A DNA stretch of 59,913 nucleotides, counting the filler, from Dugesia japonica (taxonomy: Eukaryota), in assembly GCA_001938525.1 (NCBI GenBank). It is 6 parts of 6 records of this genome, joined end to end, with 100 filler letters (N's around TTAATTAATTAA, not from the genome) between each part and the next. Parts side by side here need not be neighbours in the genome. Positions count along the whole stretch, not along the records: positions 8,667 to 19,870 come from MQRL01638626.1; positions 19,971 to 32,361 come from MQRL01570450.1; positions 32,462 to 41,977 come from MQRL01622612.1; positions 42,078 to 51,215 come from MQRL01596736.1; 2 more parts are not named here. One strand, written 5' to 3'. Below are positions 10,011 to 53,507 of the stretch, one piece after another (within the stretch, counting starts at the first letter, position 1; each line of letters begins with the position of its first letter). The notes beneath the pieces were generated by a model. It saw nothing but the letters and a program-made list of their open reading frames with translations, did not search any database and was not told the origin of the DNA. Position numbers and translations under genes: made by a program.

Positions 10011-10449
10011 TGGTTACGTGCGGACACGGGCAGAAGTGACGCAATCACCGTTCATGAATCTTTGAGTAAACAACAGTAGGTGTGAATTTTCAAACTTTGA
10101 GGTCAATTTTCACACCTTAATTTAAACAATGGACATTGATACTCAAGGAGTGAATTTTAAAATAAACAATGACGTTAGGTGTGAAAAATCACACTTTAGT
10201 TGACCTCAAAATAATTTTTTGTTTTAATTAACAAGAAAAATTTCATACATTATTTATTTTACTAAAAAATTAAAAGCGTGGCGTATTGAGCATAAAAAAA
10301 TTTTAAATTAATTAATTGATTTTTTTAAATAATGAGTAGGTAGATAGTAGCGCACTGTATCACCCCCCGAGAAGAAATTTTTTCAAGGTCACTGATACAG
10401 TATACTTGATTCTGGTTGGTCTGTGATCTAGTATACTCTATTCTGATTA

Positions 10450-11324
10450 GTCAAAAATTTGGAGATTTCGAATCTTTTCCAAATGAATACACATTTGAAG
10501 TAGATATGGTTATACCAACAGAAATCCAAGATGAACTGAATGATTTACCGGTTGCAGCAGAACATCAAAGTGCTCCAGGATCAAAGATTAAAATGTTAAG
10601 GCTGACTCATTACCCGAAAGAATATTATGCCATACACCGGAGAATGTTATGACAGTACTGGACTTAAGTAAGTTAAGAATGTACAAATTACAGTACATTG
10701 AGTTGGAAAAGTACAGACAGGAAGAGAATTGTAAGATAAATATAATAACCGCCCATACGGATAGTTTTTTCTTAGAAATGGTAGACATAAGTTTAGATAA
10801 ACAAACCGGATTAATGATGAAAGATCAGCTATTGGACACATCGAATTACAGCACAAGCCACACTCTTTACAGAAATAGTTTGAATTCAGTAATTGGAAAA
10901 TTTAAGGATTAGTGTAAAGGAAAGAAATATCAGGAGTAGATATTTTTGAGACCGAAAGTAGATAGATCCTGGCGCACATAGCCACCCCTCCCCCTCCTCA
11001 AGGTCAAATTTTTCAAGGTCAAAGTGGCTCATTTTTCTCGATTCTGATTGGCTGATCCATTTCNNNNNNNNNNNNNNNNNNNNNNNNNNNNNNNNNNNNN
11101 NNNNNNNNNNNNNACCGAAGTGTAATAGAATACTTAGTGAGAAAGAATCAATGAAAGCTAAGGCCATAATATTAATAGGTACTGGAATTTATTATCAGTG
11201 ATATCTTGATTGTTATAATAATGAAACGGTTTCAGTAGAGCAATTTCGAATAACATCAAAAAATCATCAGCTCTACAGTATCAAAAGTAAAAAAGTAGCT
11301 CTGTCTAATAAGGATGATAAGTGA
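10450..11324 (+). pseudogene. Polinton protein-primed family B DNA polymerase, C-terminal fragments
   Basis: YTFEVDMVIP...NDLPVAAE; VLDLSKLRMY; TAHTDSF (YTDTDS-like); LDTSNYSTSHTLYRNSLNSVIGKFKD; FRITSKNHQLYSIKSKKVALSNKDDK. Deleted, frameshifted and interrupted by an insertion. Confidence 0.85.
10957..11113. mobile_element. Second Polinton-type element nested in the pPolB gene (interior collapsed into an N gap)
   Basis: Starts AGTAGATAGATCCTGGCGCAC. The 6-mer ACCGAA precedes it (10951-10956) and recurs immediately after the gap (11114-11119). Confidence 0.75.
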
Positions 11325-11489
11325 GTATGGACAGCGAAATATTTAAGTCTAACATACGAGCATTATACATTGTAATACTGTTCTTCAATAAATATCAAGA
11401 TAACAAAAATAATGTATATATTTGAACGTTTACCGGTCCTCTTTAGGACCACAAAATTTAGGGCTCAAAATATTAAGTTCGATAAAGAA

Positions 11490-14160
11490 ACTGAAACAAA
11501 GAAAATACAATACAGATGCAATTCAAGAAAACACTATGAGTCAAACTTGTGAAACTCAAATGCAAGTTAAACAAAGAGATGACAACACGAATGCAATTAG
11601 AACAAAGAGCATGAGTCATATTTGTGCAACATGAAAAGTTTGGAAGTTACTGTAAATTTTCAATATTGATTAAAAAGTTTATGGAAATTTTCAACGATGA
11701 TTAAAAAATATTGCGCAAATTTTAAACTAGTTTTAAAAAGGTTCATGTGAATTTTCAATGATTTTTAAAAAGTTCTAGTAAATTTTAGAATTACTTTCCC
11801 GCTCTTTTACACAGGACATTGTGATTTTAGAAAAGGTCATGTAAATTTTTTAAAAATGTTTTAATCATTATTGAAAATTTACAGTAACTTCCAAACTTTT
11901 CTAAAGCTGCTTAAAATTTACATACACTTTTCTGTAATAATGACACTAATACTGACAATTGACTATATACAATCTACCAATTGTTCACTCAATTAATTGT
12001 ACTCTAGTTGTACTATCAATCAAACCAAATAATTCAGTCGATCAATCATATTTTTTTCCATCTTAATATAATAAAATCCTTTGAAATTATAGGTTCATTC
12101 CAAATAATGTACATTATTCACATATTAATCATACTTATTATAATATTTGCTATCATAAGGTTTAGGTCATAGTACACAACTCTCGCTATCACTAAATTTT
12201 ACCGTACACAATAGTCTCTATCAATAAGTATTAACATATACGATTCTCACTATCATCAAGTATTAACATATATAATACTCACTATCATCATTTACCTATT
12301 GATTATTCAGTTAATGATTTTATTTATTCATCGCTTATTCTTATAGTCAGGTATATACTTCACACTGAATATATACCTTGTAATCAATAATTAATTATTA
12401 ACATATTTATCTCTCAATATAGACAACTCATTAATAAACAGATCCTCTAATTTGTTTTATTAACCAAGAAATCATCAACTTGTATCATAAAAATTTATTC
12501 AATTATCAAAATTCTAACCATTTTTTCATTAACCTATTATTAACATGTCAAATTAAATAAATAATTAAATCCTCAAATAGACATTTTATTCAATCAAAGT
12601 AAAATAATTAATGAAACACGTATGAAGTTTTAAAATTAATCAAAATATACATTTAAAATCATTGAAAAGCGAGACTATCGAAGAGTGAGAAAATTAGTAA
12701 AGAGTGAAAACCTGTTAAGAGCGAGAAAACCATTGATAGTTATAGATCAGTGCACAGTGATCAGAGCTCTGATGACTGAGCACTAGTGTTCAGAACTCTA
12801 ATGACTAAATGTAAGTGAACAATGAGCAGAGCTTAGATGACTGAAGACCAGTACACTGTGAACAGAACATTGATGTCTGAAGACTAGTGAACAGAGCTTT
12901 GATAACTGAAGACTAGTGAATTGTGAGGAAATACCAATGAATAGTAAATTATCACATAAAAGAGTCAAAAGTTTAGTCAAAAAGTAGACCTTATTCAATA
13001 TTAATTTTGACTGATAGGATATACTTTTAACACTAATACTGTTCGGAATCAGCAATTATTTAATATTACTAGAAAACAACCTATATAAAGTATATGTTTT
13101 TTGATTTATTTCATTAAAGATAACGTTTGTTGATTATTAAACTAACATTAATAAATTTTATGTCTGTTTAGTCGCATCAAATTAGTTAAAAAAACATGTG
13201 TAATCATTTTATATGAACACGTTTTATTTTGTCATAATTTTTTTAATAAATAGATCTACTATAGATTTTAATTAATTTTAATTAAAATTAGTAATTAACT
13301 GTATTAGAATCTTAAATATCTCTTGTTTAAATTCATTGTTTTCAATAAATGTAATATTTTCAAATTTCCAAAATTTCCATTCGTATAAATAAGTCAATTC
13401 ATTTAGAAATTGTTCAATAGTGCAAAGGAAATTTTGACAACACTTGTATACCTTTTATCTAGATGAATACAAATCATTAAACCCTATACATTCATTAAAC
13501 CAATACAGTCAATAAACCTACTACATTGAATGCATTTGATACATTTATTAAACCTATGCATTCAATTTATTTTCTTATTTGACTTACATATTGTATTCAA
13601 TGCTTTCATTTATCTTAATCTAATCGATTAAGTTAATCAATGCAGACACTTAATCCATTGGATATGCTTAATTTGTTCCATTAGATATCAATATATAAGC
13701 AATAGTCATTATTTTCATTAAAATAAACACTAAGTTGATTCTTATGTTTAATGAGGGTTAACATAATTTTATAGTTATAATATATTTCATCTTACAACTA
13801 ATGATACAGTTAATCCAATTACATAGTTATTAAGTTATAAAAAATTCTTCAAGGCAAATACAGTAAATTAATTCATTAATCAATGAAAACAGCAAAGTCC
13901 ATATGTGTTATTTTTATCATACAATTATTTTCAATCTTCTTCATAGATAAATAAGTTTAGTAACTTAATGTAATAGAATAAAATAAATGGAACACCGTAA
14001 AACCAATTCATAGAGTAAGCATATTAGTACAATAAGCCAATGTGAAAGAGTAAATCCTAAGTGATGCAGTATACTAATGTCTAACAGTAAAACTGATGAT
14101 CACAGTAAAGCCCATGTGTTACAGTAAAATCAGTGTAAGATAGTAAAGTCAATTAATATC
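11490..14160. repeat. Series of degenerate minisatellites and an inverted repeat inside the Polinton derivative
   Basis: About 70-bp duplication at 11490-11632; about 30-bp AAATTTTCAA...AAAAAGTT units at 11636-11920 with inverted copy AAAAGTTTGGAAGTTACTGTAAATTTTCAAT / ATTGAAAATTTACAGTAACTTCCAAACTTTT; CTATCA units at 12180-12290; GAAGACTAGTGAA units at 12760-12920; CAGTAAA units at 13995-14150. Confidence 0.65.
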
Positions 14161-15879
14161 ACACATAGTACCAGATAGAATCAAATTGTTCAAATAAATT
14201 ATTTGATTTCTTGCTTATTTATCAATTGAATATGCATCAAGACTAAGCATTTATATACCAATTTTATTAATTAATGAATAAATTGTAGTCACATACAGGA
14301 AAATTATCACCAATTATATACTAATTACAACAACCTCTGATTAAATTGTATTCATATATAAACAAATTGTCAACACCTATGTGTAAACTATAGTAAACTA
14401 TATACAGATTGTTGCCAGTCATGTGTAAATTATAACTACCTACGTATCAATTGAGACATTAGTTTGTAGTTTTTCAAGTCAAAATTTTATTTGGATAACC
14501 AGATTTTATAAATTCATATAGATTTACTGAAAACAGTAAATTCATTAAAATATAGACTAAATTTATTAAGATTTGTGGAATTTCCATTAATTTTCTTAAG
14601 TTTCATAAATTTTAGTTATTAAGTAATTTAAAATGAATTAATTGCATTAAAATTCATCGAATCTAATAGGTTTAATAGATTCATAGTGTTTGTTAAAGTT
14701 CAGCAGTTGTATTTACACAGTATACCATTGGTTATAGTATATGAATAAGTAAAAACAAAATTTTATCATATGGACATTGTAGTATTTTATTCCTCGACAA
14801 TCATGATTCAAATCAAGAATAGTTACAAGTTATTATTTTATTTCGATACTTCATAATAGTATAATTGTAACATTTAGTCATTTCAATCAAGATAGTAATC
14901 AATCGAGTCATCCATTCATCAGATTTTCATTTTAATAAATTTTATTTATAAAAAATATATTTGTATTGATATTTTGTTTGTTACTTTGCTTTTTATAATA
15001 AAATTTATATTGTTCAGTCAGTAATCCATAAAAGTACTTGTTTTTCACTTTATTTCATCCGGAATAAATATTGTTGATTTGTAACCATATTTGTCTTACT
15101 CAGCGTCAAATTCTCTATCGAATAGACACTTTGATGTTCAAATTCGAGTTACTCTTTCCAAAGTTCATAATTTCCTCAGGCGATACTCTCAAAGAAAGTA
15201 CTTGTTTTTCTATATATTCTTTTTATTTAGAAGGTTTGACTATTTTTAAGAATGTTTTTCTGACTTAACGTAAAGTTTTCTATAGAATAGAAACCTCATT
15301 GACCAATTTTGGGATACTTTTAATTTTTTCGAAAATTTTACCAAATCTGAGAGGACAATATCTTCGTTAGGAAGTATTTTTCCTGAGACGATATTTTAAC
15401 TTTGTATAGTCTTGTTTTTCTCATGAGCAAAACAATACCAAATTTGAGTCGATAGCTGCCATCGGCACACAGAGATCAGAGCGCTAAAGTCCGAGTTTTG
15501 AGATTTTTTCAGCACAAAACTTCATTTATTTCATCAAGTATTAACTTTGGCGATTTTTAACTGCAACCATCATGATTAGCAAAGAATTCTTGAGAAGAAA
15601 AAAGTTTTTCGAAAAATCTTTATTTTTGAAAAATAATCTTCATAAATTTCTCCATCAATTAATTTGGAGAATCTAAACAAAAATTGTTTCAAAAATTTTT
15701 CAAATTTTGAATGTTCCCCAGAAATCCCATAAAAATTTATTCATTTAAATTATTTAAACAAATTTGTATATTTTCTATGAATTTCCGTAAAAATTTCTAC
15801 CCAAACAAACCAACCAGAGGAAATAATTGCCTAAAATCATACAAAATCAACCTTCTCGAAGAATTTTCATATTAAATCA

Positions 15880-15961
15880 ACCATGTAATAATTTTTTACA
15901 CACAGGGGGGGTGAAGGGTTACTGAATGTGTGAAGAGGCTGACAGCTACTATCCATCTACT
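15880..15961 (-). mobile_element. Orphan Polinton-type terminus
   Basis: Reverse complement reads AGTAGATGGATAGTAGCTGTCAGCCTCTTCACACATTCAGTAACCC, similar to the terminus at 32260. Confidence 0.6.
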
Positions 15962-16556
15962 CATATTCAACGAATATCATAAAGAAGATATTGAGTGTGA
16001 ATATTGTTTTGGAAAGAAGAAAGATTTGAAGAGAAAATTTATTGACTATATCTATCCTGAGTCTAATAAAAGACAATGTTAATAAATTTATGTTAATTAA
16101 TTTAGTTTGTTATTACATAAATGTTAATTAATTTAGTTTGTTATTACATAAATGTTAATTTATATTTTAATTTATTTATTCTTTATTACTGTATTAAATA
16201 CTTTAAATAAAATTTTTAAAAAAAATTGAAACATTAAAACAAACAAAAAATATTAATATTAAGTCTGCGCGGGGAATTCAAATATTAAGTCTGTCCGGGG
16301 AATTTAAATATGAAGTCTGCCTGAGAAATTCTGAACGGATGACCTTGAAACGCTTTGACCAATCACATCACAGGATACTATATCACTTTGACTTTGAAAA
16401 TATTTTAATCAATCAGAATCCAGTATACTGTATCAGTTTGACCTCGAAAATTTGACCTTCAAATTTTCAACCAACCAGAATCAAGTATACTGTATTAGTG
16501 ACCTTGAAAAGGTTTCTTCTCAGGGGGCTGGTACAGTGCGCTACTATCTACCTGCT

Positions 16557-17220
16557 AACATGAAAAATTAAACACCTTATTAATGTTTTATTAAAAATTA
16601 AAAGCGTTGCGCATTGAGCATTATAAAATTCAAGTTAATTTTTTATAGTTTTAATTAACATGAAAAATTTAACACCTTATTAATGTTTTAATGAAAATTA
16701 AAAGCGTTGTGCATTGAGCATTACAATATAAAACACATTACTATATAAAATAATAATTATTATTTTTAATATTATTTAAAATTTTAAGTGTAAACAATGA
16801 TTTTTTTATCTGCGTATAAATTTTCACACATTATTTTTTATTATTATTATTATTAAAATGTTTTTTATCGGTGTGAATTTTCACACTTTTGGCTTGAACT
16901 TTCGCACCTTAATTATTTGTATTAATTTATGAATATTAAAAAACATATAATTGTTGTTTTTTTAATGTACTTTTTTTTCGCACCTTTGTCGCTAACTTTA
17001 ACTTTTAAAACCATAACTTTAAAATAAAAACAATAATTTTTTATTGGCGTGTAAAACTTCACGTAATATTTATTATTTTTTAAGGTGTGAACTTTCACAC
17101 CTTAAACTTTACAATATTTTCGTTCATTTTCATGGAATGATGAGCCTCAAATATTATTGCTTTGTTATTGAATTTTCACACCCTAAACTTTACAAATTTT
17201 TTTGTTTAAATTTCCATGAA
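16557..17220. repeat. Older repeat with about 100-bp tandem units and GGTGTGAA..TTCACAC motifs, split by the Polinton insertion
   Basis: AAATTAAAAGCGT(T/G)GCG(C/T)ATTGAGCAT units at about 10268, 16597 and 16696; GGTGTGAATTTTCA motifs at 10079-10200 and 16870-17180. Confidence 0.65.
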
Positions 17221-17280
<60 letters not shown>

Positions 17281-17281
17281 T
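17221..17281. repeat. (ATT)n microsatellite
   Basis: Seen directly; similar tracts at 20407-20457, 42078-42110 and 53344-53408, and (AT)n at 29761-29790. Confidence 0.95.
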
Positions 17282-17463
17282 GACGATAAATTAATAATTA
17301 ATAATTAACTAGCGTAAATACTTAAAGCACCTTTTGAAAAGAAATATTTTATATATAAATTATTATTAAGAAATTAATTTTAATTAAGTAATAATTATAA
17401 ATTATAAGTATTTATTTTAAATAATCAGAAATGGAATGTTTATGAGGCTCCTCCAGCATTTTT

Positions 17464-18163
17464 TCATTTCTTTTCCATTGTCCAATCGTTTGGATTTCTA
17501 AATTATTGAAATCAGAGATAATTTAGTTGAATATTTCAAACCCAATTGTATCTTGTGAAATATAATAAAACGTTTTCTCGATCTCTACCACATCTTTCCA
17601 TGAATTTCCAATGTTGTATATTTTAGCTAATTTGAAAATTATTTCCTTTTCATAAATCACATTAATTAATCAATTATTTAAAACGATTTACATCAGTTTT
17701 CTGAGGATATTGTCTAAATTTACTCATTCCATCTTTAACTCTGAATTCCTTCGTCTCAATCACAGTTATATTTCCATTATAAATAATATATGTTTGGTAC
17801 GGAGTAATTATTGCTAGAATATATTTATTGATTAACTAGAAATTCAATTTCCCTATAATAGACAACTTGCTTTATTTTTGAATTTTTTTTGTTTTCTATA
17901 ACAGAATATATTATGAACCATAACACAGTTGACATTATTCCAATAAACCGCTCCGTAAATCAAGCTATGTATGCAATTATCGGTGGTTGCATTAATGACT
18001 TTACTAGGAAATTCTCATAGAATTAATTATAGAAATTCTCACATTACTGTAGTAGAACTCTCGATCCATCCCGATAGAAAACTTCACCATTTTGCATTGA
18101 ATCTCCTCCATCCACCCAAAACGATGGAAAGTAAAACATTTTCGATAATGCAACGAGATTTAT
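17464..18163 (-). CDS. C-type lectin domain protein, 3' exons (5' part not found)
   Basis: Exons 18048-18163, 17867-18003, 17692-17813, 17542-17645, 17464-17497 with phase-consistent GT-AG introns. CTLD motifs SFWVDGGDSMQNGEVFYRDGS and DNCIHSLIYGAVYWNNVNCVMVHNIFC. Absent from the ORF track. Confidence 0.7.
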
Positions 18164-18499
18164 CTAATTCTTATTTTTTTCAATATTTAATTAACTAATT
18201 ATATTTTAATAAATATTTTCTATTAAAAAAATTTAAATATNGTATACGCAAAAGAATTAGTTGTATCATCGATTGATTTATTTGTGTTATTGGTTAATTT
18301 TTATTATCGATTTACCTGGTTTTATGACAAACGCCATCATCATTGAACCCGACATTGGCAAAAGTCTACAATTTTGTATTTATCCGACATGTTTATTATT
18401 TTAATCTCGATTTTGTCTTGTTTTATGAGGTTGATTACAGCTAGTGTTAGTTGATTATTTATTGTTTTTCTTATATAAATGTTGTGATGTTGTAAAATG

Positions 18500-19870
18500 A
18501 AAATAAATACTTATTCGTAGAATGTCTTAGGATATAAATAATTCTCCATATAATAAAATCTCATTTAGAATTAAATCAAATAAAAGGCAAATAAAGTAGG
18601 AAAACATTTTAAGAAATAGTAACTAATGTGTATTCAATAGTAAAATATTATATTTAAAAAGTGTTTTTCATAAACCAAGATCAAGAAACGTTTAGCAAAT
18701 ATAAAGAAATAAGTTTTTGCAATAAACAGAAGAAAATAAGTATTCTACTTAATGAAAAATATAACTCTGAAAACAAAATCAAAATCAAAAAAAATTCAAA
18801 TCAAAGCTCTTATACAACTGTTCTTTCTTTCAAAACTCTTACTGAATGGACAAGGAATTAAATTTACTTAACAAAGGTCCAAGCTATATCTGGGCCAATT
18901 CAAAGGTTTCTGACTCATCAAATATTTCAATGAATAAAGCTTTCATTTACAACTTAAAATGTCAATTACAAAGATTAGAAAATACAGCAAATGAAACATC
19001 TAATGATTCCTCAATCAATTATCTTTACACTGATAAAATAAATAAATTGGTAGCTCTTTCTGAACAAAAATGCAATGAATTTTTTTATGAACATTTAAAT
19101 AATTATGAAACAATAGCCTAGAAACAATTAATCTAAATAGCAGTAAAATATAAAGACCCAATAAAATCTCTACTTTCATCAGTTAAATTTCATGAACCAG
19201 TTTCATCATCGATGTATGTGTTCCTAAGGATCACAAAGAAAGAATGAAAGGAAGACCTATTGTAAACGCTACTGAATTATGCCAACTTTTAGCAGATATA
19301 TTAAAATCACTATTAAATTTCATTCCGGCACATTTAAAGAACAGTTATGAGTTGATCGAACAAATTAAAATTTATGAATGGAAAAGTGATGATAAGTTTG
19401 GTTCGTTAGATGTAACAAATCTATATGGATCAATTCCAATTGAAAAACCTGAAAATGTCATTGATATTGTAAGTGACTTCTTTGAAAGATACAAAGAACA
19501 TACAGATATTCCAGAGATCACAAAAAAATGATTTTAAATGTCTTATCAATTTGTGTCTTTTCTCAGATAGCATTTTCATCGGTGAACAACTTTTTAAACA
19601 AAAATGGGTAATAATCTATCTCCAATTCTAACGATAATTTTCATGAACTTCATGGAAAATCGAATAATTCTTAAATCAAACAAGAAAATTCATCTATGGT
19701 TTAGATACTTAGATGATATTTTAGAGAACATTCTAGAATTAGCTAACAGTATTAATGATAACATTAAATTCACTTTAGAAAAATCAATGGACTTTTAGAT
19801 TCGTTTTCTGAACACTTTAATTCAAAAGAAACCTGGTGAAATATTAACTACCCAATTATATATGAAACCA
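18500..19870 (+). mobile_element. Penelope-like retroelement RT, pseudogenised and cut by a contig end
   Basis: LLNKGPSY, KGRPIVN, IPAHLKNSYELI, FGSLDVTNLYGSIP, MGNNLSPILTIIFM, WFRYLDDI, NSINDNIKFTLE, TQLYMKP; multiple frameshifts. Confidence 0.9.
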
Positions 19871-20406
19871 NNNNNNNNNNNNNNNNNNNNNNNNNNNNNN
19901 NNNNNNNNNNNNNNTTAATTAATTAANNNNNNNNNNNNNNNNNNNNNNNNNNNNNNNNNNNNNNNNNNNNTAATAACTAATCAAAGTTTATTAATAATTT
20001 ATTTAATAATAATTATCTATTTATGGAAAAGAAATTATCAATTACTACTAAAAGATTTATTAATTAATTGTCAACGTTCTAAATTTACAACAAAATAATA
20101 AACGTTACAATACGCAAAACAAACAAATACGCCTATATATAATTTCAATCACAGTACCAAATTAAACTTTTAATAAACTGATGATTACTCCTAGACAATG
20201 TGCGACTGATAAGACAATAAATATAGTTCNNNNNNNNNNNNNNNNNNNNNNNNNNNNNNNNNNNNNNNNNNNNNNNNNNNNNNNNNNNNNNNNNNNNNNN
20301 NNNNNNNNNNNNNNNNNNNNNNNNNNNNNNNNNNNNNNNNNNNNNNNNNNNNNNNNNNNNNNNNNNNNNNNNNNNNNNNNNNNNNNNNNNNNNNNNNNNN
20401 NNNNNN

Positions 20407-20457
<51 letters not shown>

Positions 20458-28480: not shown

Positions 28481-29332
28481 CAACATTTCGACGAATCAAC
28501 CCTCGTCATTCGACAAAAAGATAAATATGATATAATTTAGTCTATATTATTCAAACAAAGATTTAAGCTATAAAACTTATGGATATAATAAAAATTCAAA
28601 ATTGTTTTTTAAAATTCTTTTGCTAATAAAATTTTAATGAAATTCTCCACATACTTTATATATCACGAAACTTAAAGTAATACTATATCATTGGTTTGCA
28701 TTTACACGCATTACCGCTATTATTATTTTTAAATATTCCTTAATATCTTTAATTATTATTTTTAAAGTCATTATTATGATTGCCCATAAAATTTTTATAG
28801 TTATATGAACAGTAATTTCGCCTGTAAACAAGCTGTATTTTCATGTATATAAAACGATTCTAGTGAATACGTAATTAAACATCGATACATAATAATTTGA
28901 TTTTAAACAGAACAGTATTTTAAAATAATTATAAATCAACATTTTTATTTTGATTCAAAAAACAATTAAAGATTTATATATTTTATGTTACAATTTAACA
29001 ATCATAAGTATAAAAACTCTAAAACGCCATTTTAATATATATTTTTTACTAAATTTTTCCGTCATCTTCAGATACAATATGTAATCCTTTTATAATAAAA
29101 TATGCTTATATATAAAAAATCTGATTATATAATCAATTATGCAATCTCTCCAATAAATCAAATTAATTAAAAACATTCAATAAAGATTTGGGAAGACCAG
29201 TTTGAATATTTATTTTTTGGATCAATTGATCTAATCATCAATGCTCCTAATACCCTTTAAAGTTTCTGCACAAAATTTTAAAACTATTTTTACTAATAAT
29301 TGATGATTTCAATTTATGAAGTGAATTATAAA

Positions 29333-29562
29333 TTCATTTAAAAAAAAGATTCTATCAAAAAATTTTTTATGGATTTTTTGAGATTGATTCGATATTTCGA
29401 CTTTGTCTTCTTCAGGAATTGACTTTTTAAAAATCAATTTCTGACGAAGACAAAGTCGAAATATCGAATCAATCTCAAAATTCAATAAAAAAAATTTTGA
29501 TCGAAGCTTTTATTTTAAATTAATTTTGAAAAACGATCAATGGTTACGTCCAACAATTATTT
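29333..29562. mobile_element. Palindromic (foldback) MITE
   Basis: Arms GAGATTGATTCGATATTTCGACTTTGTCTTC / GAAGACAAAGTCGAAATATCGAATCAATCTC. Related copies at about 738-900, 50757-50930, 53508-53752 and 57970-58075 share TAAAATAAAAGCTTCGATCAAAATTTT. Confidence 0.8.
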
Positions 29563-29757
29563 TTGCAATAATTGCAATTATAGATTATGAATGATTAAAT
29601 ATTTCAAAGATTCTCATTCACATTAAGGATAATCTTTATTTATTTACAAAAATAGGTCAGTAATATATTTCTTGTGAGACAAGTGTAGACGGCATCTATA
29701 ATAAATATAAATTACTTGAAGATTAATTTGATGTTTTAATATATATTTTTAATTACA

Positions 29758-29793
<36 letters not shown>

Positions 29794-32259: not shown

Positions 32260-32361
32260 AGTAGATAGATAGTAGCACACGACCTCAGCACACATGCAGT
32301 ACCCCCCCTCCCGACGTAATCGGATTATTACATAACTGAGGTTGTATTTTTCTAATGTAAA
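32260..32361 (+). mobile_element. Polinton-type terminus at a contig end
   Basis: AGTAGATAGATAGTAGCACAC...GCAGTACCCCCCC. Confidence 0.6.
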
Positions 32362-32518
32362 NNNNNNNNNNNNNNNNNNNNNNNNNNNNNNNNNNNNNNN
32401 NNNNNTTAATTAATTAANNNNNNNNNNNNNNNNNNNNNNNNNNNNNNNNNNNNNNNNNNNNTATTATGCATATATATATATAATGCATCTCATTATTATT
32501 TCTTGTAATTTTTTAAAT

Positions 32519-32893
32519 ATGAATTCTACAAATATAAAAATAATGGAAGAACAATTCAGCAAACGAGGTTTGAATTTTTTAATTATTTTATGATTTTATT
32601 AATTTTATAATTTAGGAATGCTTATAGACATAATGGAGAAAAGAAATAGGCTTGATGAAGAACGAAAACCAATGCTTCCAGAGTGCATTGTCAAAGGGTA
32701 CATGGGGGCTAAATTTTGTGAACCTGATTGTATCGGGTGCGCAGAGTTTAACGTCTATGTCGCCAAGCAGAACAATCTGGATGCTTTTAATAAATATAAT
32801 GCCTATTTTTTTAAAGTTATTATTACAAGATATTTATGCATGTTATTTGCAGTCTTGATATTTTTTAAGATATTATTACAAGATATCTGGTAG
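32519..32893 (+). CDS. Small putative spliced ORF with Cys cluster (CEPDCIGC)
   Basis: ATG at 32519 to CGA G|gtttg ... tttag|GA ATG joins in phase to ORF 32618-32893. No homology recognised. Confidence 0.35.
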
Positions 32894-33939
32894 TCTTGAT
32901 TGAAGCATTATTAATTATTTCTTTATATTTTACTTTAGATGGCTCAGTTTTGATATATATTCTTTGTAAGAGATTCAGGCATTATTGATTTTTAAAAAAA
33001 ATATTTTTGCTTTAGATGTGCCAGTCTTGTTATTTTGCAAGCAATGAACAGTCTAAAATTCATATGCACGTGATTTTCAGTGTATCTGTGTTGCATATGA
33101 GTTGCATCTGAGTGGCATACCTATTGCATTTATTTTAAAAATTCAAAATGGTGGCTATATTGAGTTTTAAAAAAACAAATTGGTGGCTATGTTGAGTTTT
33201 AAAAATTCTCAGACTTGTGATTTTCAGTGTATGTGTGTTGCAGCTGTAATGCGTCTGAGTTGCATTTATGAAAATATATCTATTAAAAAACTTCAAAGAT
33301 AGGAGTCTTTGTGATATTTACATGATAAAAATATAACTATTAAAGTTTTAAAACTTCCGATCAAAAATTTTTTTTTGAATTTTCCCCCAAAAAGATTTTT
33401 TTTGAATTTACAACCAAATTAATTTTTTTGAATTTCCCGCCAAAAAAGTTTTCAAAAATATCAAGACTTCCCGCTTCCCCGGTCGAAAATCTTACAATAC
33501 AACACTTCCCTGATCAAAATACCAAAAAATAACCAAACATACATCAAATACTAAAAAATGACATTACTTTCATTAAATTCATCAAATTAAGCAATATACA
33601 TCATTTTTTTTACCAAATTAAATATTTCAAAAATTTATGACATCATAACCAATTGACAAAAACTTTCAAATAAATCTTATAAAATCCGATAATTAATTTT
33701 CTTTCCAAACATACAAACCTCCACCTCACGAAAACTTTTTTAACACACTTATACTACTTACAAAATAAACCAATCAAATAGTAGCCCTTAAAATNAAAAA
33801 TCAAAGCACATTCGACAACCAACATCTTAACCATCACATTACCTCTCCAACAAGCCATCAACCAACAAATTCCATAAACAACATAATAACCTACAACCAA
33901 AACAAAAATCCTCCACGATAACTCATACGCCTGTGCCTG

Positions 33940-34444
33940 TGTGCCACTAAGTTTGTAGTGAAAACCATCCATCCAAACTCATAAGTCCATTAGACAATAT
34001 ATAGACCAAATTTTGTCCAACAACAAATAAATCTTCAAAGTCCCAAAAATATTATCTCCACAATCTCCAGCTACTACTCCTTGTTTTTTCCAGTATTTTA
34101 CACACACACACACAACCACAATTTGACCAACTTTTTAAAAACCACCTTAACAACCCAAACACACAGAAAATTTAAAATTTAAAAATACACACACACACAC
34201 ACATTTTCAGGATAAAAAAAACTAATCAAATCAAAAAAAAACTTTGATCCTATCAAAAATTTTTGATCCCAAAAATATTAGGAAAAAAAACGATCACAAA
34301 AATCATGGTTAAAAAACGCAGCTCAAGCGTAATGTGTTTCTGAGCCCCCGGGGGGAGGGAGGGGCTCGATAACTGCTTAAAAATAATTTTGCCCGAATTT
34401 TGGCTCATTNCCAAATTATGCCCGTGTGCCACTATCTACCTACT
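33940..34444 (-). mobile_element. Long terminal region of a Polinton-type non-autonomous element
   Basis: Ends ...GTGCCACTATCTACCTACT; about 500 bp is an inverted, diverged copy of 41481-41977. Confidence 0.75.
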
Positions 34445-40366: not shown

Positions 40367-41390
40367 TAGGGAATGAAAAACCGAAAGGAATTTTGAAAAC
40401 CGGTTTACCGAAAATTGGATACTTCAAAAAAGAATTCAGAGGATTAAATTATTGAACTGTATTTCATATTTTATTTCAATGTAATAATATTATTCCATCT
40501 TTATAATAATTTATTAAAAAATGATATATTGTAATAGAAAATTACAAATTAGCGTTAAATAAGCGTTTTAGTTCTATATATTTTTAATTGTTTTTATGTA
40601 ACCTCACAGGAAACCAAAGCGTCAATTGACTCATCGTTCAAGTTTGTTCGAAGTTTCAAACAGATTTGACCTGCAGCCAAAAATGATCATCAGCCTTAAC
40701 ACCTGTAGGATTGTTCATAAATTTGTTGGGTAAATTTGCCCCGTGTTCCATCTTCTTCAAACAACGCCATTTCTTTTTTCAAAAAATTAGAATTATCTTG
40801 GGTTTTTGTTTTTTCCGGTAATCACACAATTTACTTTTATTGATTTAGCTTGATCAAATAGTTCCTTCATACTAAGGTTTCCAAATCGGTTCTGTGGTTC
40901 CTTAATTTTTTAAACTTTACAATCATTATAGTCTTCATCACTATTTTCATTACTAACGTTCTCTTTTACATTAATTAAATAGTATTTATGTGCTAATTTC
41001 AACAAGGATTTGAGTACTACAGTTTTGATGAGTTTAGGAAATAAAATCTTTTCATAGTCATCTGCTGTTAACGTTTCTTTAATTACTTCAAATGCGTGAT
41101 ATAAATAATGAATAATATCCAAAATTTTGGCGCAACGTTCATGAATACGTTTTGTTATTGCATTTAATAATTCAGTACCTATTGGTCAAGTTCATGGAAT
41201 AAGAATTTAAATGTTGTGTCAGCATTAATAAAATTAGCATCATTGCGATACAATGCTTCAACCGCTACTTTAACAGGAACTAAAGAAGAAATAGCCTATG
41301 AAATGATGTTATATTTATTGTCAGAGACACTGATTGTCAATTTCAAATCTATATTTGATTTTTGAATTTAGCTTCTTAGATGGCTATAAC
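40367..41390 (-). mobile_element. hAT transposon relic (C-terminal transposase and one terminus)
   Basis: SLVPVKVAVEALYRNDANL...KRIHERCAKILDIIHYL; dimerisation-domain-like FLAAGQICLKLRTNLNDESIDAL; terminus TAGGGAATG with ACCG subterminal motifs at 40367. Confidence 0.75.
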
Positions 41391-41480
41391 TCTTAATTTT
41401 TAAAATTTTTAACAATTTTTCAAAAAAAACTAATTTATTTTCTCATAAAAATGTTTTCAATAATAATATTTTATTAAAAT

Positions 41481-41977
41481 AGTAGGTAGCTAGTGGCGCT
41501 ACGGCATATTTTTTCCCAGCACAATTTGGGGGGATCCCCCCTCCCCCGGGGAGCTCGGAAACACATTACGATTGTACTATGATTTTTTAGTTAGTTTTTT
41601 TTTCTAAGATTTTCGGGATCAAAAATTTTTCGATCGGATCAAAAATTTTTCGATCGGATCAAATTTTTTTTGATCGGATAATTTTTTTTGATCCTGAAAG
41701 TGCGTATTTGTGTATTTTTTTTAAGTTTAAAATTTGTGTGTGTTTTGGATGTTGAGAGCTTTTTTAAAAAATAGGTCAAGTTGAGTTTGTGTGTGTGGTT
41801 GTGTGTGTGTGAAGGAATGGTTTCGGATTCGAGGAGTAGCTGGAGATCTTAGAAATAATTTTTTTGTTGTTTTTAAGATTTGTTTGTTGTTGGACAAAAA
41901 TTTGGTCTATACATTGTTTAATTGACTTATGGTGTGTGATGGATGGTTTTTACTAGAAGGGTAATGGCGTCACGGAA
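41481..41977 (+). mobile_element. Polinton-type terminal region, same family as 33940-34444
   Basis: Starts AGTAGGTAGCTAGTGGCGC; about 20-bp GGATCAAAAATTTTTCGATC tandem; runs into the contig end. Confidence 0.75.
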
Positions 41978-42077
41978 NNNNNNNNNNNNNNNNNNNNNNN
42001 NNNNNNNNNNNNNNNNNNNNNTTAATTAATTAANNNNNNNNNNNNNNNNNNNNNNNNNNNNNNNNNNNNNNNNNNNN

Positions 42078-42111
<34 letters not shown>

Positions 42112-42817
42112 TATAAAATGAAAGATTGTTGAAAGTTTTTCTGTCAAATTATGAAATAATAATATCACATGAAAAAACTTTAAATAAATTACAATTATTA
42201 TTTATTTTAATTATTAAATTATAATTTCATTTTAGATTCGGAAATTAACAAATGATACCATTGATGAATACAAAGCCAGTATTAGCCGCCAAATTGCTGA
42301 TCTCGATGCTAGAATATTACATTTACAATCACTTAGTTCAAGAGGATCAGTTGATTTCGATGAAAGAATAAAAGAGGTAAAATTTATTTTAATTTTATTG
42401 ATAAAAATTATTTTTATAATTATAATAAATATAGCAGTTTATTTCGAGTAATTATTTATTTAAAACATGTGTGCGTTGTGAATATATTCTCAATTCTTTA
42501 TAGAATATATAAAATGTAATTTAAAATTGTAATAAATTTATACGTTGATTGATCCTTTATACAGAACTTAGCGCACTGTATCACCTCCCGTACTGTACTT
42601 TATCACTTTTCAAAGTGATATAGAATCTCATTGGTCGAAAATCTATGAGCGGGAAATATAAAATTATTTTTAATTTTCGTTTTTTATTTAAATAATGTAT
42701 TGGTTTTAATGAAAATTTTTTGCGGATAATTTGAATTTAATTTTTTTTACAAGAAAATATTTATTTTGTTTTAAATGAATGAATAAAATGTTTTTCTTTT
42801 GAAAATATTTATTTGTT

Positions 42818-43330
42818 TTAATAACATGAAACATTTTTACAGGTAATTATATAATCAAGTGTCAAGAAGTCACGTAGAGAGAATGACATAAATGATTTAC
42901 TTGACCGTTTTCGATTTGCGTCTGTTCCATACCCTATCGGTGCAATACAAATGTGCCTACTGTCTCCATTATAATTTAAAATAGCTTTAATCATTGCTTT
43001 TTTATTATATGTTTCACTAGCACCTTCGATTTTTATATTATTAAATGAAAGAATTACATCTTCAAACAATCAATGAAACTTGTAGTTGCTGGGCACCACT
43101 TCGGTATTATCAGACAAATTTTTTCAATATTTATTAACTACTTCTACTTTGACATACAATAAAGTATCATTCAAATCTAGATATTCCGTTTGTGATCTGT
43201 TTATATAAAACTATCATTTTTGGATTCAGTTATTGAATTCATTGGAAACACATCTTCAAATGCACCATATTTAATTCGCTAGTTTGTTTTTCCAAATACT
43301 TCAATAACATCATCATTGGTAATCAATATT
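42818..43330 (-). pseudogene. Polinton major capsid protein (double jelly-roll), N-terminal relic
   Basis: EYLDLNDTLLYVKVEV...VVPSNYKFH*LFEDVILSFNNIKIEGASETYNKKAMIKAILNY fits the recalled consensus YIDL..T.LYVK...P.NN..HSLF..V.V.LN......Y.YRAYIETLLNY. Confidence 0.75.
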
Positions 43331-43589
43331 TTTTTTGTTATCAACTGTAACATTCATCTTTTCCTGCTACTTATTCAATTTCGGATGTGTTATAAAAGGG
43401 AAAATTTTACAAAGATGAAATCCAGCTATGCTACTACCCATTGACCTTCCAGATAAATCGAATTTTTAAGCTTAACAATGATATTATTAGCATTATTATA
43501 CGGAGGAATAAGTCAAAATCTATTACTCGGTAAAAGTGTATAGAAATTATTATTTTTGTTCATTTTTCTTTGTAGAATTCTTCTTAGTT

Positions 43590-44591
43590 CAATTAACTGA
43601 TTGAGATGCAGATACTCAAATAGGTTTCTCGTATCCATGCCAATTTACACTTAATTATTTATTTTCATTACTCCCATTTGATTTGATAATCTTTTTGATT
43701 CTAAATACGATTGGTTTTTATTGCATCACTTGCAATTCTTGTTTATTAAATTTCCCAACTGTGAAATTATTTTAATTGTCTTTAATCACATACGTTATTG
43801 AATTCTGTTTGGTATTGATTTTTAATATTTGAAAAATTTCATTGCTCCAATTACTATTGAAATTCTTGATGAATGGTGAAGCCGATATCTGTGAGAATCT
43901 AACATGATCACCAACTTTATTTAGGTTTCTTAATTACTTTTGATTGTTGTCTCAAAAACCATAACTTCATTGAATTATCCATTTAATCCCTTGTGACTTC
44001 TATGGTTTTATAACCATCAATTATTTTTTGCTACACATGAATCCAGGTTTTATTACTAGTATGGTCAAAGTACTGTTTCAATGCATCTCTCAATTTTCAA
44101 TTAAATCTTTCAACATATACTGCTTTTTACTGAAAAAATGTAGAATAATGGTTAATGTTGAGATAATATAATATTCTTAACTTTTGAATTGTAGAATTCT
44201 TCACCCATATGAGTTTTTAAATTATCTGGATGTCAATATGTAAACATTTACTTGATTGCGGCTTCTATTTCATTATCTGATTTTGGTTTTACCGGAGTAG
44301 CTCTCGCAAATCTGCTAAATACATTAATACATGTCAAAATGTACTTATATCCCGTATTAATTTTCGAAAAGGGCATCAAATCCATTTGCCATAACTCATC
44401 AATTCCAAATATTTTATGCGGTCTTATCGGAAATATTTTCAACTGTGGTTTGTTCATATTGTATGCTAACTGGTTCGATAACCACATTTTCGATCGCTTT
44501 TGGAATTTTTTGTTGCTTCCCATAAGTTTTCTACTCCTTTGAATTCTGATGGATTTCGTGGATCTGTCAATATCGTTTTGATTCTGTCCAT
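43590..44591 (-). pseudogene. Polinton-type retroviral-like integrase with C-terminal chromodomain-like tail
   Basis: MDRIKTILTDPRNPSEFKGVENL; GIDELWQMDL..FSKINTGYKYILTCINVFSRFA.ATPVKPKS; VGDHVR; NWSNEIF; VNWHGYEKP. Frameshifted. Confidence 0.9.
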
Positions 44592-45958
44592 TACAACAGT
44601 TTGATGTAAAACTGATATAAGATCTTTATAATGATTCCAAAATACTCATTGACTATGTAAAATTTGATAGACTTAATGCTATTAATTCGATTGCTATTAA
44701 TGCCGCTATAAAAATCCCGTTTTGTTTATACATTACTTTACTCATCAATTTCTCATTATTGACATTTAGAAATATTAACAGTGAATTTTTGTGATTTTGT
44801 AATACTGGATTTTTAACTTTGCTTATATTTGTATTACCACAATCAACATTTATGATTATCTCTAGTAAAGTATAAACAACAAATGATTGAAATGATTTTA
44901 AAATTTTCACTATAATTTCTTTTGGATAAATACATATGATAAATAAATACATGAATGTTTTTTGTATATAACTTTATCCATTTTTCATTTTTAAGTTTCT
45001 TTCCTCTCGCTTTCCTTTTCTTTCTAAATATGTTCATTTGATTCTTCGATTATATTTTCTTTATCTGTTTCTTATCTTCAAGTCGTTATTACTCTCGAGT
45101 TTTGAACAACTATTTTGTTGATCAACTAAAACTTTTTGAAAGTTTGTCATTGTATAAATAGATAATTAATTCAATTGTTTATACACTGTGATTCCATTCG
45201 GGATGAAAATATCAGTTCCCACTCTAGGTTTGTTTGGGCATTGTTATGTAAAGTTATGTAACATATTTGAATAAATCCATAAAACCTGTTAATTATTTTG
45301 GTTATTATTTGATAGAAAATCAAAAGCAGTTTAATCTCTTGGATTTTTAAATATAACCAAGTATTGCACATTCAATTTAAATTCTCTGTGACTTTCTCCT
45401 TGATGAAATAAATTTTTAGTAATTAAAACCACAGTCACCTTACAGTGATATCATTGTGAGTAAATTGTTAAAGTAATTTTCTTTGTTAGCTTCTTGATAT
45501 AGATCATTAACAATCACATCACCATTAGTCAATGTCTTGCACCAAGTTTCATTGAATTCGTTTATAAGTTTCATTTTTATATCACAGAATTCAGATTGAG
45601 TTAATCTATGCTCTTTATCAGCTCCTCTATGCTGGTATATTTTATTAAATCNTGATTTAAATAAATTTGATTTCAAAATCTGACACACAAACAATGTTTT
45701 CATGATTGGAAATATTTTAATTTAGATATATGTTGATGTTAGCTTTATATTTCATTAAAAGGTTATTACAAATAATTATTGTATAATTATTAAAGTACAT
45801 TTGTTATAATAAGGCGTGTTAGTAAAATTTTGATATTACTTAAATATATAAACTATTTTAAAGTATTCATTAATTTTTTAAGTAAAAACTATATTTACAA
45901 TATTTTACTCTTTGTTACCTAATATATTCGTATAATTTTATAAATATTTGTGTTAAAT

Positions 45959-47243
45959 ATGGCTTTGATATCGATAGATATTAGGAAATTAGTCATTCAA
46001 AGATTGAAAGAGGGTTTGTCTCAGAGGAAAGTTGCAATTCAACTTAATATTTCAAGGCTTACTGTAACACATATTATACTCAAGACGAAACAACAGAAAT
46101 TTATTTAAAAGTAGATGTAAGCCGAAAAATACACAAAGATCTGAAAGATCACTTATTCGTATATCAATGAAAACGGCATGTCATCTTTTGATTGATTGGA
46201 AAACAAGTCAAACTTCCTCAGTTAGTACTATCAAGCGTATTCTGAGAAAGTACGGCTTGTTTAGACGGATTGCAGCGAAGAAGCCCTTATTAAATGGGCG
46301 ACATATCAAGAATCGCTTAAAGTGGTACAAAGACTATGGAAAACTGCTTCTTTCTTTTTTGAATAACGCCATATTTACTGAAGAATGTAGGATAGAACTN
46401 TTCTCCAGAAGAAGAGAGTACGTCTGCAGACAACAACGATCCCGATATAATCCGAAATATACCAAGAAAACTGTGAAATTCGGAGGTAAGAGTTTGGTGG
46501 TTTGAGTCGCAATCAAAGAAGATGGCTCCGTAGTTCTTATAAGGTGTTTAGATCGGATTAATTCTGTTGCCTATATAGACGTATTAAATAAAGGTTTGCT
46601 GCCAATATATGAGGCACAGAATATATTTCAGCAGGACGGAGCTCCATGCCATAAATCAAGATTTTTGTCTTCATTTTTGGAAAAATCAAAATTATGTGTG
46701 CTCAGTGATTGACAGGTCCAGTAACCAGATCTGAATATAATTGAGCCATTGTCGGCAGATCTGAAAGCCAGGGTTGTGAGCTGTAGGCCGGTAAATATTG
46801 AGACACTTTTGAGGAATTCTGAGGAGCAGTTGATGATGATTCCGATATCTAAAATTAAAAATCTGTATTCAAACATGCTAAGAAGGATCCAAGAAGTAAT
46901 CAAAAATAAAGGCATGAATACAAGTTACTAATTTCGAGTAACTGAATTTTTTATGAGGTATGCCGTTCAATAAAATGTGTTAGGTCAATTGAAATGTTAA
47001 TAAAAAAATGTTTCATGGTCTTACATTCTTGTATTCAAATTGACTTAAAAATTCATGTTTTTGAAAAAATCAGTTTTTCTACATTTACAAAAGTTATACT
47101 TTGGAAATATTTGATTGGAAACATGTACTTCAACATATTCTNNNNNNNNNNNNNNNNNNNNNNNNNNNNNNNNNNNNNNNNNNNNNNNNNNNNNNNNNNN
47201 NNNNNNNNNNNNNNGGGTGGCTCAAAACATTTGGACGACATTG
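45959..47243 (+). mobile_element. Tc1-family (DD34E) transposon, pseudogenised, nested in the Polinton relic
   Basis: HTH GLSQRKVAIQLNISRLTV; AAKKPLL; TVKFGGKSLVV; FQQDGAPCHKS; PDLNIIE; ORF remnant 45959-46931; right TIR-like GGGTGGCTCAAAACATTTGGACGACATTG followed by TA. Left TIR not found. Confidence 0.9.
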
Positions 47244-49498
47244 TATATATTGTATTGTATTATGTTTAATGAAATTGTTTAATGTACGTAATCAGACTGA
47301 ACCATTTACATTATCATTGATATCTTAATAATACTAGATTTGAATAAATTACCCGAGAAAATATGAATGATTGAGCAATACGAATACAATGCGAGTGCAA
47401 TACTAATACAGTTGATGACCAATACGAATGCAACTAAAAAAAATTTTAAGAATATTATATTGTGGTATTTGAAAAAAAATTAACAACACGAAAAAAATCT
47501 ACTTCATAAAAAATAAAATATCAAATTATCAAATGTTAAAATTTATTTCCTAAAACTAAAAATTCAAACTTAAAATTTATAACCAAAACTTTTTTCAAAG
47601 GTAAACTTTACAAAATTAAAATTTATTAAATTAAAATATTTTTGAAAAGACAAATTAATTTACTTAAAATTTAATTTTAAATTAAAATTTGAAATTATAA
47701 TAAAAAAATAAATAATACAAATGCAATAAAATAATAATTCAAATTACCTTATTATTGTTCGTGTAATTAAAACAAATAAAGAATTTTCCTCAAAAACGTT
47801 TGAATTAAAATTTCCCGCGGAAAATTTTTCAGCCAATGAAATTCTATATCACTTTGAAGAGTGAGCGAATTTTTTTCTTAAAAGTGCGATGATCATTGAC
47901 AATTTTTCCTTAATAAAGTGATTCTTTGATAAACATTCTAAGGTTTTAGTGATTTCTGCAGAAAGTAAGTGCAACATAGACTTGACATTTAGCGAAAACT
48001 GGTTTAATCAAATGCGCACTAACTTTATCAAAACGATTAGAGTTGGACCTTATTAATAGTCATGGGAATGCCAAGATTACTGAAAAATTTTAAGCAAATA
48101 AATTAAGATATACAGGCTTAAGATTTAAAACCTTAAAATTTATAAAATATTTTGTGTAACTGAAGTGTTCAAGAGTGAGTCAGTCAATGTGTGAATTGGG
48201 TAATCATATTAAAGATATTTGAAAATAATTGCTTTTAAAATTTATTTAAACTTTCATGTGAATTTACAAATTTTAAATTGCTAAATTATTTTTGTCAGAA
48301 ATGTTGAATTAAATAAGTACGTTTTAATTAAATCACGTTGCAATTATTTCTAAAACAATTATATGACATTCTTATTTATCTCATAAAATGTTCCTTAATA
48401 GTTAAAACCATTTTTTTAACAATTTCAAAAAGATTATTTTGATTCATATTTTTTACTTTTTTTGAAAAATTCAAATTTATATAAAGTATTATAAATAATT
48501 ATCAACCAATTAAATTTGTTGAATATCAACAGTTAAACAAAGTTTACGAGAAGTGTTTTATTAATGCTGAAAAAGAATAAATTCAGTGACTATTTTTCAC
48601 ATACAAATTTTTGTTTTTCTACATGTTTGTTTCAAAGAAAATGAAAACACACACTCCTTAATATTTTTGCCCAAATTGAAAATGGGATATATTAAAAATA
48701 GTTTATTGAAGAGAATTTGTTTTCAAATTGACAACGATGATGTTATATTATATATTAGTAGAAATTTATTTACAAACGTTTGTTTTATTAATTATTTATT
48801 CATCATTATCTTTTCTTATTGTCTGCTAATTAAATTTCCTTATCTGTATAATTTTTGAAATAATTAATCCAATTTTTAATTCATTTATGTTTCAATTTAA
48901 ATTTTTATTATTATTGTAAATCCGTTATCATAAAAATCGTTGTTGTATTTACCTGTTTAACTATAAATAGGGATTATAATTATTTGAAAAATTAAAATGA
49001 ATTAAAGTAAAATAGATTTCATTAAAATAAAGGTTGCCTGTATCTAGTATTGCTTAAATCTTTGTTTGAATAATCTCATTTTTCATTTTGTCTAATTATG
49101 ACTGTTGATTCGTTGAAATATATCACAATAAAGTTTCATTTTAAATGGCATTATTTATTTTTTATAACAATTATTATTATTATATTAATAATAATTATTA
49201 TTAAAAAAATTTTATTTATATAAACTTTATAAATTTGCTATTTTATTATTTAGAAAAAAACATTTGAAAGGTATGTATTAATGTAGATTTTCATTAGACC
49301 TATTTTCATGANTAAATATTTTATTATATCTGAATTATGGTTATAAAAAGCTGAGATATATTTCTGAATTACTATTAAAATAACTACTAAGGTTATGTTT
49401 ATTATTCAGTTTTCATCGATTTTAAAATTTTTCGTACTTTGAAAGTTCTTATGATATTAAATATTTTTTTTTATTGAATCATTTTTTTTGTAAAAAAA

Positions 49499-49743
49499 AG
49501 TAGTCACGTACATCAGCACTGTACCACCTCGTCCACCCGGAGAAGAAAATGCTTTATTCAGTTATCCAGAAGGTTGCAATCCGATTTAATAATTTTTTTC
49601 CTTCTTATTGTGTATGTGTGTTGAATTTTTATCGAGCGATGAGTCATTTATTGCGTCATGCTGAGTAGTGTGTAAGTAGCTGATTATTCAGCTGCTTACT
49701 TACTTCATTGTAAGAAGGTAGTATAGTGCTGACGTATCTAATT
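49499..49743. mobile_element. About 245-bp MITE with Polinton-like ends
   Basis: AGTAGTCACGTACATCAGCACTGTACCACCT versus inverted AGGTAGTATAGTGCTGACGTATCTAATT. Confidence 0.55.
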
Positions 49744-50756: not shown

Positions 50757-50930
50757 GAATAATTATTGGACATAACCATTGATCGTTTTACAGCATTCAT
50801 TTAAAATAAAAGCTTCGATCAAAATTTTGTTGTTTTTATTTGGTATTTGATAACAATTGTTGTTATAACAACAATTGTTATCAAATACCAAAAAAAGAAC
50901 AAAATTTTGATCGAGGCTATTATTTTGAAT
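50757..50930. mobile_element. Palindromic MITE copy with perfect spacer-less core
   Basis: Perfect palindrome at 50839-50892 inside the family arms. Confidence 0.75.
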
Positions 50931-53408: not shown

Positions 53409-53507
53409 NNNNNNNNNNNNNNNNNNNNNNNNNNNNNNNNNNNNNNNNNNNNNNNNNNNNNNNNNNNNNNNNNNNNNNNNNNNNNNNNNNNNNNNNNNNN
53501 NNNNTTT

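Follow-up and report, generated by a model that had tools for sequence, protein, structure and literature searches.

Polintons, or Mavericks, are giant elements characterized by a 6-bp target site duplication, termini of the form AG...CT, long inverted repeats and a preponderance of decayed copies; their gene set includes a family B DNA polymerase that is protein-primed (pPolB), an rve integrase, an ATPase, a capsid protein and protease-like genes (PMC8097293, PMC6431247). In vertebrates the end hexamer is described as (AGT)2 or (AG)3 and the inverted arms measure 46-1,447 bp (PMC8097293). Reduced relatives are also on record: the Tlr1 elements are sometimes viewed as gene-poor Polintons (PMC5499653), and Polintons of Pieris that lack the polymerase are reported to be still mobile (bioRxiv 10.1101/2025.02.07.637071). 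In Dugesia planarians an expansion of Mavericks with a large genome load has been described, in a study whose available passages give no ends, families or small derivatives (bioRxiv 10.64898/2025.12.11.693146). Here we report on a 59,913-nucleotide stretch of the Dugesia japonica genome (GCA_001938525.1; six joined stretches, filler included, which we call the window as a whole) in which a terminal motif, AGTAGRTAGNTAGTRGC, recurs. A preliminary description regarded its copies as a satellite-like system of mini-Polintons with unrelated cargo. We find instead that the motif is very probably the conserved outer end of one Polinton/Maverick clade, the copies in the window being decayed, nested and centre-deleted, and the tiniest forms in the genome being likely independent collapses.

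Eight termini had been listed in the window, and seven of these match AGTAGRTAGNTAGTRGC with 0-2 mismatches at exactly the places given (10335+, 10957+, 15961-, 16556-, 32260+, 34444- and 41481+), as against a mean of 0.02 over 100 shuffles. The eighth, at 49499, has no match to the 17-base pattern even with 3 mismatches; it has a subterminal block in common with another AGTAG-ended family. The run of C (five or more) said to follow most of the ends is seen after six of the eight, 34444 and 49499 being without it, and also after 24 of the 28 ends in the first 30 genome loci. The genome-wide scan that had been proposed bore the motif out: across 854 Mb in 648,594 contigs the exact 17-mer has 11,343 copies versus 3 for the reversed control, an 11-base core has 30,036 versus 1,362, and the insertions number ~14,000 by end count. 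The end counts are lower bounds, since a further end variant, AGTAGGGACATAGTRGC, found in L233, L236, L237, L246, L249 and L250, is not covered by the patterns. A count of AGTAGTAGTAG was discarded as that of a microsatellite carrying no information. Neither the terminus nor relatives of the TBP-like gene described below were found in the viral contig set.

The conserved end is longer than 17 bases. Among 180 sampled ends (a sample biased by the queries chosen) it spans ~29 nt: the 17-mer, GCAC, five variable bases and CAC. The terminal sequence reads AGTAG...CTACT, with A or G, and not T, at base 6. Beyond base 30 the ends of the window fall into three types, 10335/16556/10957, 15961/32260 and 34444/41481, with within-type local scores of 36-98 where the shuffled maximum is 30, and 49499 in no type; hence the idea that these elements have only a terminus in common does not hold. 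Clustering of the interiors, likewise proposed beforehand, does give 57 inner-arm clusters among the 180 ends, and the types found in the window tie to Polinton genes (type B via one contig).

The target site duplication is best seen where two ends face each other. Ends up to ~530 bp apart were paired genome-wide and full-length elements were linked contig by contig; in the window itself the joints between the six stretches limit the pairing of ends. At the 26 loci that have such a facing pair, the 6-bp duplication is exact in 15 and agrees at 5 of 6 bases in a further 3; in the 15 exact loci six is the only fitting length above two, and the chance of such an exact duplication is 0.0007 per pair, as estimated from base composition. 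Exact duplications also flank all seven members of a family with palindromic arm repeats taken up below, 5 of these coming from a further family search. Outside 137 distinct ends the composition of the six flanking bases is symmetric; asymmetry is least when a 6-bp span is taken (0.12 versus 0.16-0.42). Such a symmetric target profile is expected from a dimeric integrase. A looser search gave 189 end pairs, of which 50 are listed; four of the listed pairs agree at 5 of 6 bases, as judged by eye, and many of the remainder are an end together with an internal inverted copy and a recurrent flank, TTTTAC in 9 contigs. Among the window copies the duplication is exact at 10957, kept at 4 of 6 bases at 10335/16556, and absent at 49499. 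As a separate observation, L214 (contig C42074) and 8 further contigs have an inverted copy of the end motif ~100 bases inside the end with a constant downstream flank, and in this family each end could fold back upon itself.

The arms behind these ends lead to the genes of a Polinton, so that the attribution of the ends to Polintons stood. In the window, 10461-11398 is 81-90% identical in nucleotides to a polymerase gene family (L093, L112, L113), the L093 frame of which matches PF03175, the protein-primed family B polymerase, at 2.2e-8 and also Endonuclease_7. In the family to which this copy belongs, family P, the run from polymerase through arm to terminus is collinear in 9 of 33 contigs, the rest stopping short or being interrupted. 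L196 has the order terminus, 1.6-kb arm, ATPase, integrase and start of the polymerase; the rve integrase (PF00665, 1.3e-11 on L194) lies inside the terminus in both L196 and L192. The ATPase has Pox_A32 as its best match (E 1e-4; 22.3 bits, where the cut-off is 22.8), and the ATPases of families C and P are 77-81% identical. A capsid fragment (L189) has no Pfam match; it is 77% identical to a full-length homologue, P0076, one of several for this piece. In its model (pLDDT 90) this homologue has the double-jelly-roll fold (Foldseek 2e-15), resembling the capsids of iridovirus, PBCV-1, Sputnik and mavirus. Peptidase_C5, the adenain-type protease, matches 2 of 3 fragments at E 0.0015 and 0.007, both below the cut-off. 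Thus pPolB, rve integrase, ATPase and capsid of the Maverick set have counterparts here, and the protease has candidate fragments only.

A further gene, of ~150 aa, resembles TBP (PF00352 at 8e-12; solved TBPs at 1.6e-8) and stands head-to-head with the packaging ATPase in L283 (1946-2440, minus strand), and also in L274, L273, L188, L185, L194 and L369. It is present in both families C and P, and the TBP-like gene and ATPase together lie inside the ends of family C, of an AP-1-type family and, in one contig, of type B. Public protein sets hold 75 homologues of it; some are on contigs of 16,321, 18,985 and 22,064 bases, the same sizes as contigs that carry capsid homologues. A TBP label on a Polinton-type element has appeared before, in MELD viruses with an adintovirus-like PolB (Starrett et al. 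2021, PMC8502044); there it is a figure label for mostly non-animal elements, as far as the accessible text goes, while here a single genome has several families in which the gene and the ATPase are head-to-head.

These gene links bear directly on whether the ends could come from a different DNA-transposon superfamily that nests in Polintons. The copies do often nest in one another, and a single adjacency could therefore mislead; against this stand the collinear runs from polymerase to terminus in nine contigs and from terminus to integrase in L196, the fit of the 6-bp duplication and AG...CT ends to Mavericks (PMC8097293), and the fact that no transposase was seen inside any of the ends. We hold such an origin to be exceedingly improbable overall, and for family P it is refuted.

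The following features of the window belong to the clade or concern it:

10335..16556: centre-deleted family P Polinton, with inverted ends 92% identical over 87 nt and an interior collinear with pPolB-bearing relatives
10335..10460, plus strand: left terminus, with 126 nt remaining of the left inverted repeat, joined straight to mid-polymerase at 10461
10461..11398, plus strand: decayed pieces of the protein-primed DNA polymerase (10461-10646, 10651-10956 and 11114-11398), with an internal deletion at 10646/10651
10957..11113, plus strand: nested element with a P/D-type end in the polymerase gene, its far end inside the assembly gap 11064-11113
11636..15961, minus strand: nested gene-less 4.3-kb piece of type B, a second family, with its right terminus at 15961 and its left end lost
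15962..16556, minus strand: outer portion of family P's right inverted repeat, collinear with relatives that have this terminus at their end; it holds tandem repeats in subterminal position and the terminus at 16556
32260..32361, plus strand: type B terminus at the very end of its contig (102 bases off), no partner being visible
32519..32810, plus strand: small two-exon accessory gene of family C, with a predicted intron at 32568-32615
32805..34444, minus strand: rearranged inverted-repeat arm of family C with minisatellites, terminus at 34444
41481..41977, plus strand: terminus of another family C arm and the beginning of that arm, truncated where the contig stops, with a 73% inverted match to 33953-34362
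42560..47870, minus strand: older decayed Polinton of the same clade, with capsid at 42926-43210, integrase at ~43700-44560 and ATPase at 45175-45700
49499..49743, plus strand: diverged single copy with a worn terminus and a subterminal block in common with an AGTAGGGACAT-ended family, without a duplication

The copy at 10335..16556 sits in a tandem repeat of ~100 bp, and its flanks rejoin as one tandem unit; its duplication has decayed to ATAATG/AACATG. The element nested at 10957 is flanked by ACCGAA at 10951-10956 and 11114-11119, relatives without this insert overlap by the duplication, and its end matches L092 at 86-90%. In family P's right inverted repeat the inner portion lies at ~11490-11635, and family P sequence resumes at 15962, after the type B piece. 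This piece has no ATG-independent frame over 85 aa at 11636-15961, the interior being non-coding; two parts of it were tested and each matches ~40 contigs. L369 joins an arm of the 15961 type to the ATPase and a remnant of the TBP-like gene. Three pairings of these ends were ruled out: 32260 with 34444, as a joint of the window lies between them; 10957 with 15961, which differ both in their flanks and in end type, and the first of which has a duplication to itself spanning the gap; and CATATT at 11618 as the counterpart to a duplication at 15961, as it belongs to the family P arm. The termini at 34444 and 41481 face away from each other. In the older copy at 42560..47870 the ends are eroded and inverted arms persist at 42603-42657 and 47810-47864; an insertion at ~45965-46930 within it is, by eye, presumably Tc1-like. 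The small gene at 32519-32810 has no Pfam match and 40 other matches at 86-94% among the candidates scored, which in each similarity search numbered at most 40. In relatives it comes after the TBP-like gene that faces away from the A32-type ATPase. Lying apart from all this is a palindromic repeat family of ~130-240 bp (29330-29560, 50720-50930, 53505-53750 and 57965-58075) unrelated to the AGTAG ends.

It is against this anatomy that the preliminary description has to be set, namely amplified, trans-moved mini-Polintons that have only their end in common and carry unrelated cargo. The common end, the 6-bp duplications and the diversity of inner arms agree with it, as does the gene-less, multi-copy 4.3-kb piece at 11636-15961. 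The interiors, however, are Polinton genes and arms: polymerase remnants at 10461-11398, family-specific inverted repeats and, in place of a small spliced frame of foreign origin, an accessory gene from within the Polinton gene block beside the TBP-like gene and ATPase. The 245-bp piece at 49499-49743, taken earlier for a miniature inverted-repeat transposable element (MITE), is decayed at its ends and lacks a 6-bp duplication, and the 40 candidates scored include no other full-length copy. Nor was an amplified mini family met with among seven small elements queried, each being a single-junction form wherever tested. An interior unrelated to that of its helper, as in helper-satellite systems, is not what is found, apart from the type B interior, which is non-coding. 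For the window copies this model is largely refuted, and in general we rate it as improbable. The window copies represent at least three families of the clade and are not mini-elements with foreign cargo. They are unable to move on their own; movement in trans after gene loss would be plausible.

Several results weigh against placing all these ends in one Polinton clade that has since decayed. The duplication is missing at 8 of the 26 paired loci, and only 13 of the 50 listed pairs of the looser search, counted by eye, have it exactly. Among the contigs fetched from this fragmented assembly there is no intact copy of the motif-ended clade: all copies seen are broken, including every polymerase-bearing one. 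The comparison with ends of intact Polintons that had been suggested gave nothing in its favour, as 0 of 46 polymerase-bearing loci or contigs checked ended in the motif, with one nested insertion only. The link between type B ends and genes is a single contig (L369), itself without a terminus, and no gene links were seen for the 32260 subtype or the palindrome family. As for the small forms, the palindrome rule set out below rests on one family, the switch point being ambiguous in four other small loci (three distinct elements); and in a fragmented assembly, with 40 candidates scored per search, young identical minis could have been collapsed. Intact Polintons do occur in this genome, in another clade (ATPase ~36% identical over 42 aa). 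One contig of a different clade, C529426 (L061-L062), is near-intact, with capsid, ATPase, a 1,527-aa polymerase frame and an integrase with a phospholipase A2-like domain; its ends are unassembled.

Gene-less elements of 103-512 bp with inverted ends and exact duplications do exist in the genome. They are few: exact end pairs up to ~530 bp number 13, versus 11,343 ends. None of seven queried minis had its junction at a second site among the candidates scored. In the palindrome family there are seven minis, 139-267 bp long and each at a site of its own; in 6 of the 7 the left arm gives way to the right within a 14-bp palindrome, GTTRCCATGGYAAC. The lack of shared junctions in the seven queried minis, together with these switches in the palindrome, points to independent collapse rather than amplified MITEs. 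In being short and gene-less, with inverted ends and a duplication, the minis resemble MITEs; many copies of the same structure at different sites were not found (0 of 7). Two minis are of unusual build: L085:9-264 has four tandem copies of the terminal ~53 bases, and L081:172-558 has an internal hairpin of two end motifs. These could be marks of slippage at a replication origin.

The small paired-end forms might be assembly artefacts, that is, short-read collapses of long elements. The assembly is split into 648,594 contigs, many of the ends are cut off by a gap or by the end of the contig, a gap lies in the centre of the 10957 copy, and the public contigs aligned to one 139-bp mini neither crossed its junction nor ruled it out. 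The junctions, however, vary by copy, and a 117-bp form has a second, separately assembled copy at the same site, 96% alike, with the same junction in both. Furthermore, the overlap of the arms is a 14-bp unit, which is shorter than the usual assembly words. We give this explanation slightly less weight even than that of amplified mini-Polintons.

The alternative that deserves more consideration is that the small and mid-size gene-less forms are defective genomes, produced by template switching at the palindromic repeats while the free element undergoes protein-primed replication, and then integrated by a helper's integrase as fresh insertions. It is compatible with our view of the identity of the ends and concerns only the origin of the small forms. 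In its support, near-perfect arms go together with exact duplications in several minis (L316, L317), L085 and L081 have the repeated and hairpin end copies described above, nine contigs share the internal inverted end motif along with its flank, and the Pieris elements are a reported precedent for mobility without a polymerase. On the other side, the minis are few, in-place collapse gives the same junctions without an extra step, and neither a helper nor free DNA nor an allele with an empty site was seen. On balance we find it rather unlikely. A fuller version of it, in which the clade spawns gene-less genomes of 100-500 bp via template switching at the palindromic arm repeats, and these are replicated and integrated by a helper in the manner of defective interfering particles, is a little less likely again. 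Were it true, ~60 bases per end would be all that a Polinton needs in cis, and swapped inner arrays of transcription-factor-like sites would serve as a family-specific activation cue.

We return to in-place collapse, with the tiniest gene-less forms likely to have arisen one by one through deletion from arm to arm, and with collapse after insertion favoured over collapse in free replicating DNA. By analogy with known Polintons, the integrase would bind the conserved end and make a 6-bp staggered cut, and the protein-primed polymerase would use the same end as its origin; a need of both enzymes for it would account for an end that is held constant while the inner arms drift apart into arrays of short repeats peculiar to each family. 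The clade presumably spread widely, after which its copies decayed, nested and collapsed. If a repeat unit is a palindrome and both inverted arms have it, its copies are also direct repeats across the element, and deletion between two such units would therefore remove the middle. Slippage or microhomology repair between them could leave a remnant of 100-500 bp that keeps the original duplication, much like a solo long terminal repeat (LTR).

The inner arms themselves are rich in short motifs. In 48 P/D ends TCAAGGTCA occurs 67 times and CCAAT-type motifs 54 times, with 0 in their flanks; TGASTCA occurs 29 times in 9 ends, with 0 in their flanks. The ends L319-L339, L208 and L217 contain arrays in which the palindrome GTTRCCATGGYAAC alternates with AGGTCAAGGTCA. 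These motifs were picked after viewing the sequences, so that the counts are descriptive only. GTTRCCATGGYAAC resembles the RFX X-box. Beside the Polinton genes lie some others. L369:60-350 has a remnant of a small multi-exon gene adjoining the TBP-like gene, with a Cys/His spacing that by eye is like that of a CCCH zinc finger. Two long single frames next to Polinton remnants, L161:2027-3604 (minus strand; Otopetrin, 4.8e-11) and L172:7641-8558 (plus strand; HEAT/PBS-lyase repeats, 3.7e-22), are probably host genes.

The clade as a whole is like known Mavericks in its 6-bp duplication, AG...CT ends, long inverted repeats and mostly decayed copies. Its end hexamer is AGTAGR; the hexamers cited above are described for vertebrates only, and membership is not excluded by the difference. 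In length the arms come up to or exceed the upper limit of the vertebrate range, being ~1.6 kb in family P and 1.1 kb or more in family C. Unlike vertebrate Mavericks, it has ~29 nt conserved across many families. As in polymerase-less Polintons, ends are kept while core genes are lost; unlike in the known ones, the loss here goes down to gene-less forms that, where tested, form no families. The 'N' in the name Polinton-1N1_DR we take to mean non-autonomous. That element is named in PMC9341505 and Polinton-N1A_NV in PMC11296320, in the portions of those papers available. The closest parallel for the deletion itself is in Tc1/mariner MITEs, where internal deletion between short homologies likewise keeps both ends; those MITEs were amplified, to 116 identical copies, unlike the minis here where tested, and the homology here, unlike theirs as far as it is described, is a palindromic unit in both arms (Yang et al. 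2013, PMC3814204). Polinton remnants of 100-500 bp or collapse at palindromic arms were not found in the literature searched, as far as its accessible text goes, and lists of the Repbase type may already describe the ends.

The class of element is unchanged by these observations: this is a large, decayed Polinton clade with its debris, ordinary in kind. Modestly new are a 29-base end held in common by many families and a probable solo-like collapse where palindromic repeats occur. What is known of how Polintons replicate and integrate comes, to our knowledge, largely from sequence models. A set of ~14,000 insertions with one 29-base end, along with remnants that consist of little besides the two ends, marks the likely cis signal for the integrase and polymerase, as well as a target preference. 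If general, collapse at palindromic repeats would amount to a shedding of giant elements comparable to the formation of solo LTRs, one that leaves clusters of factor-binding-like motifs behind in the genome.

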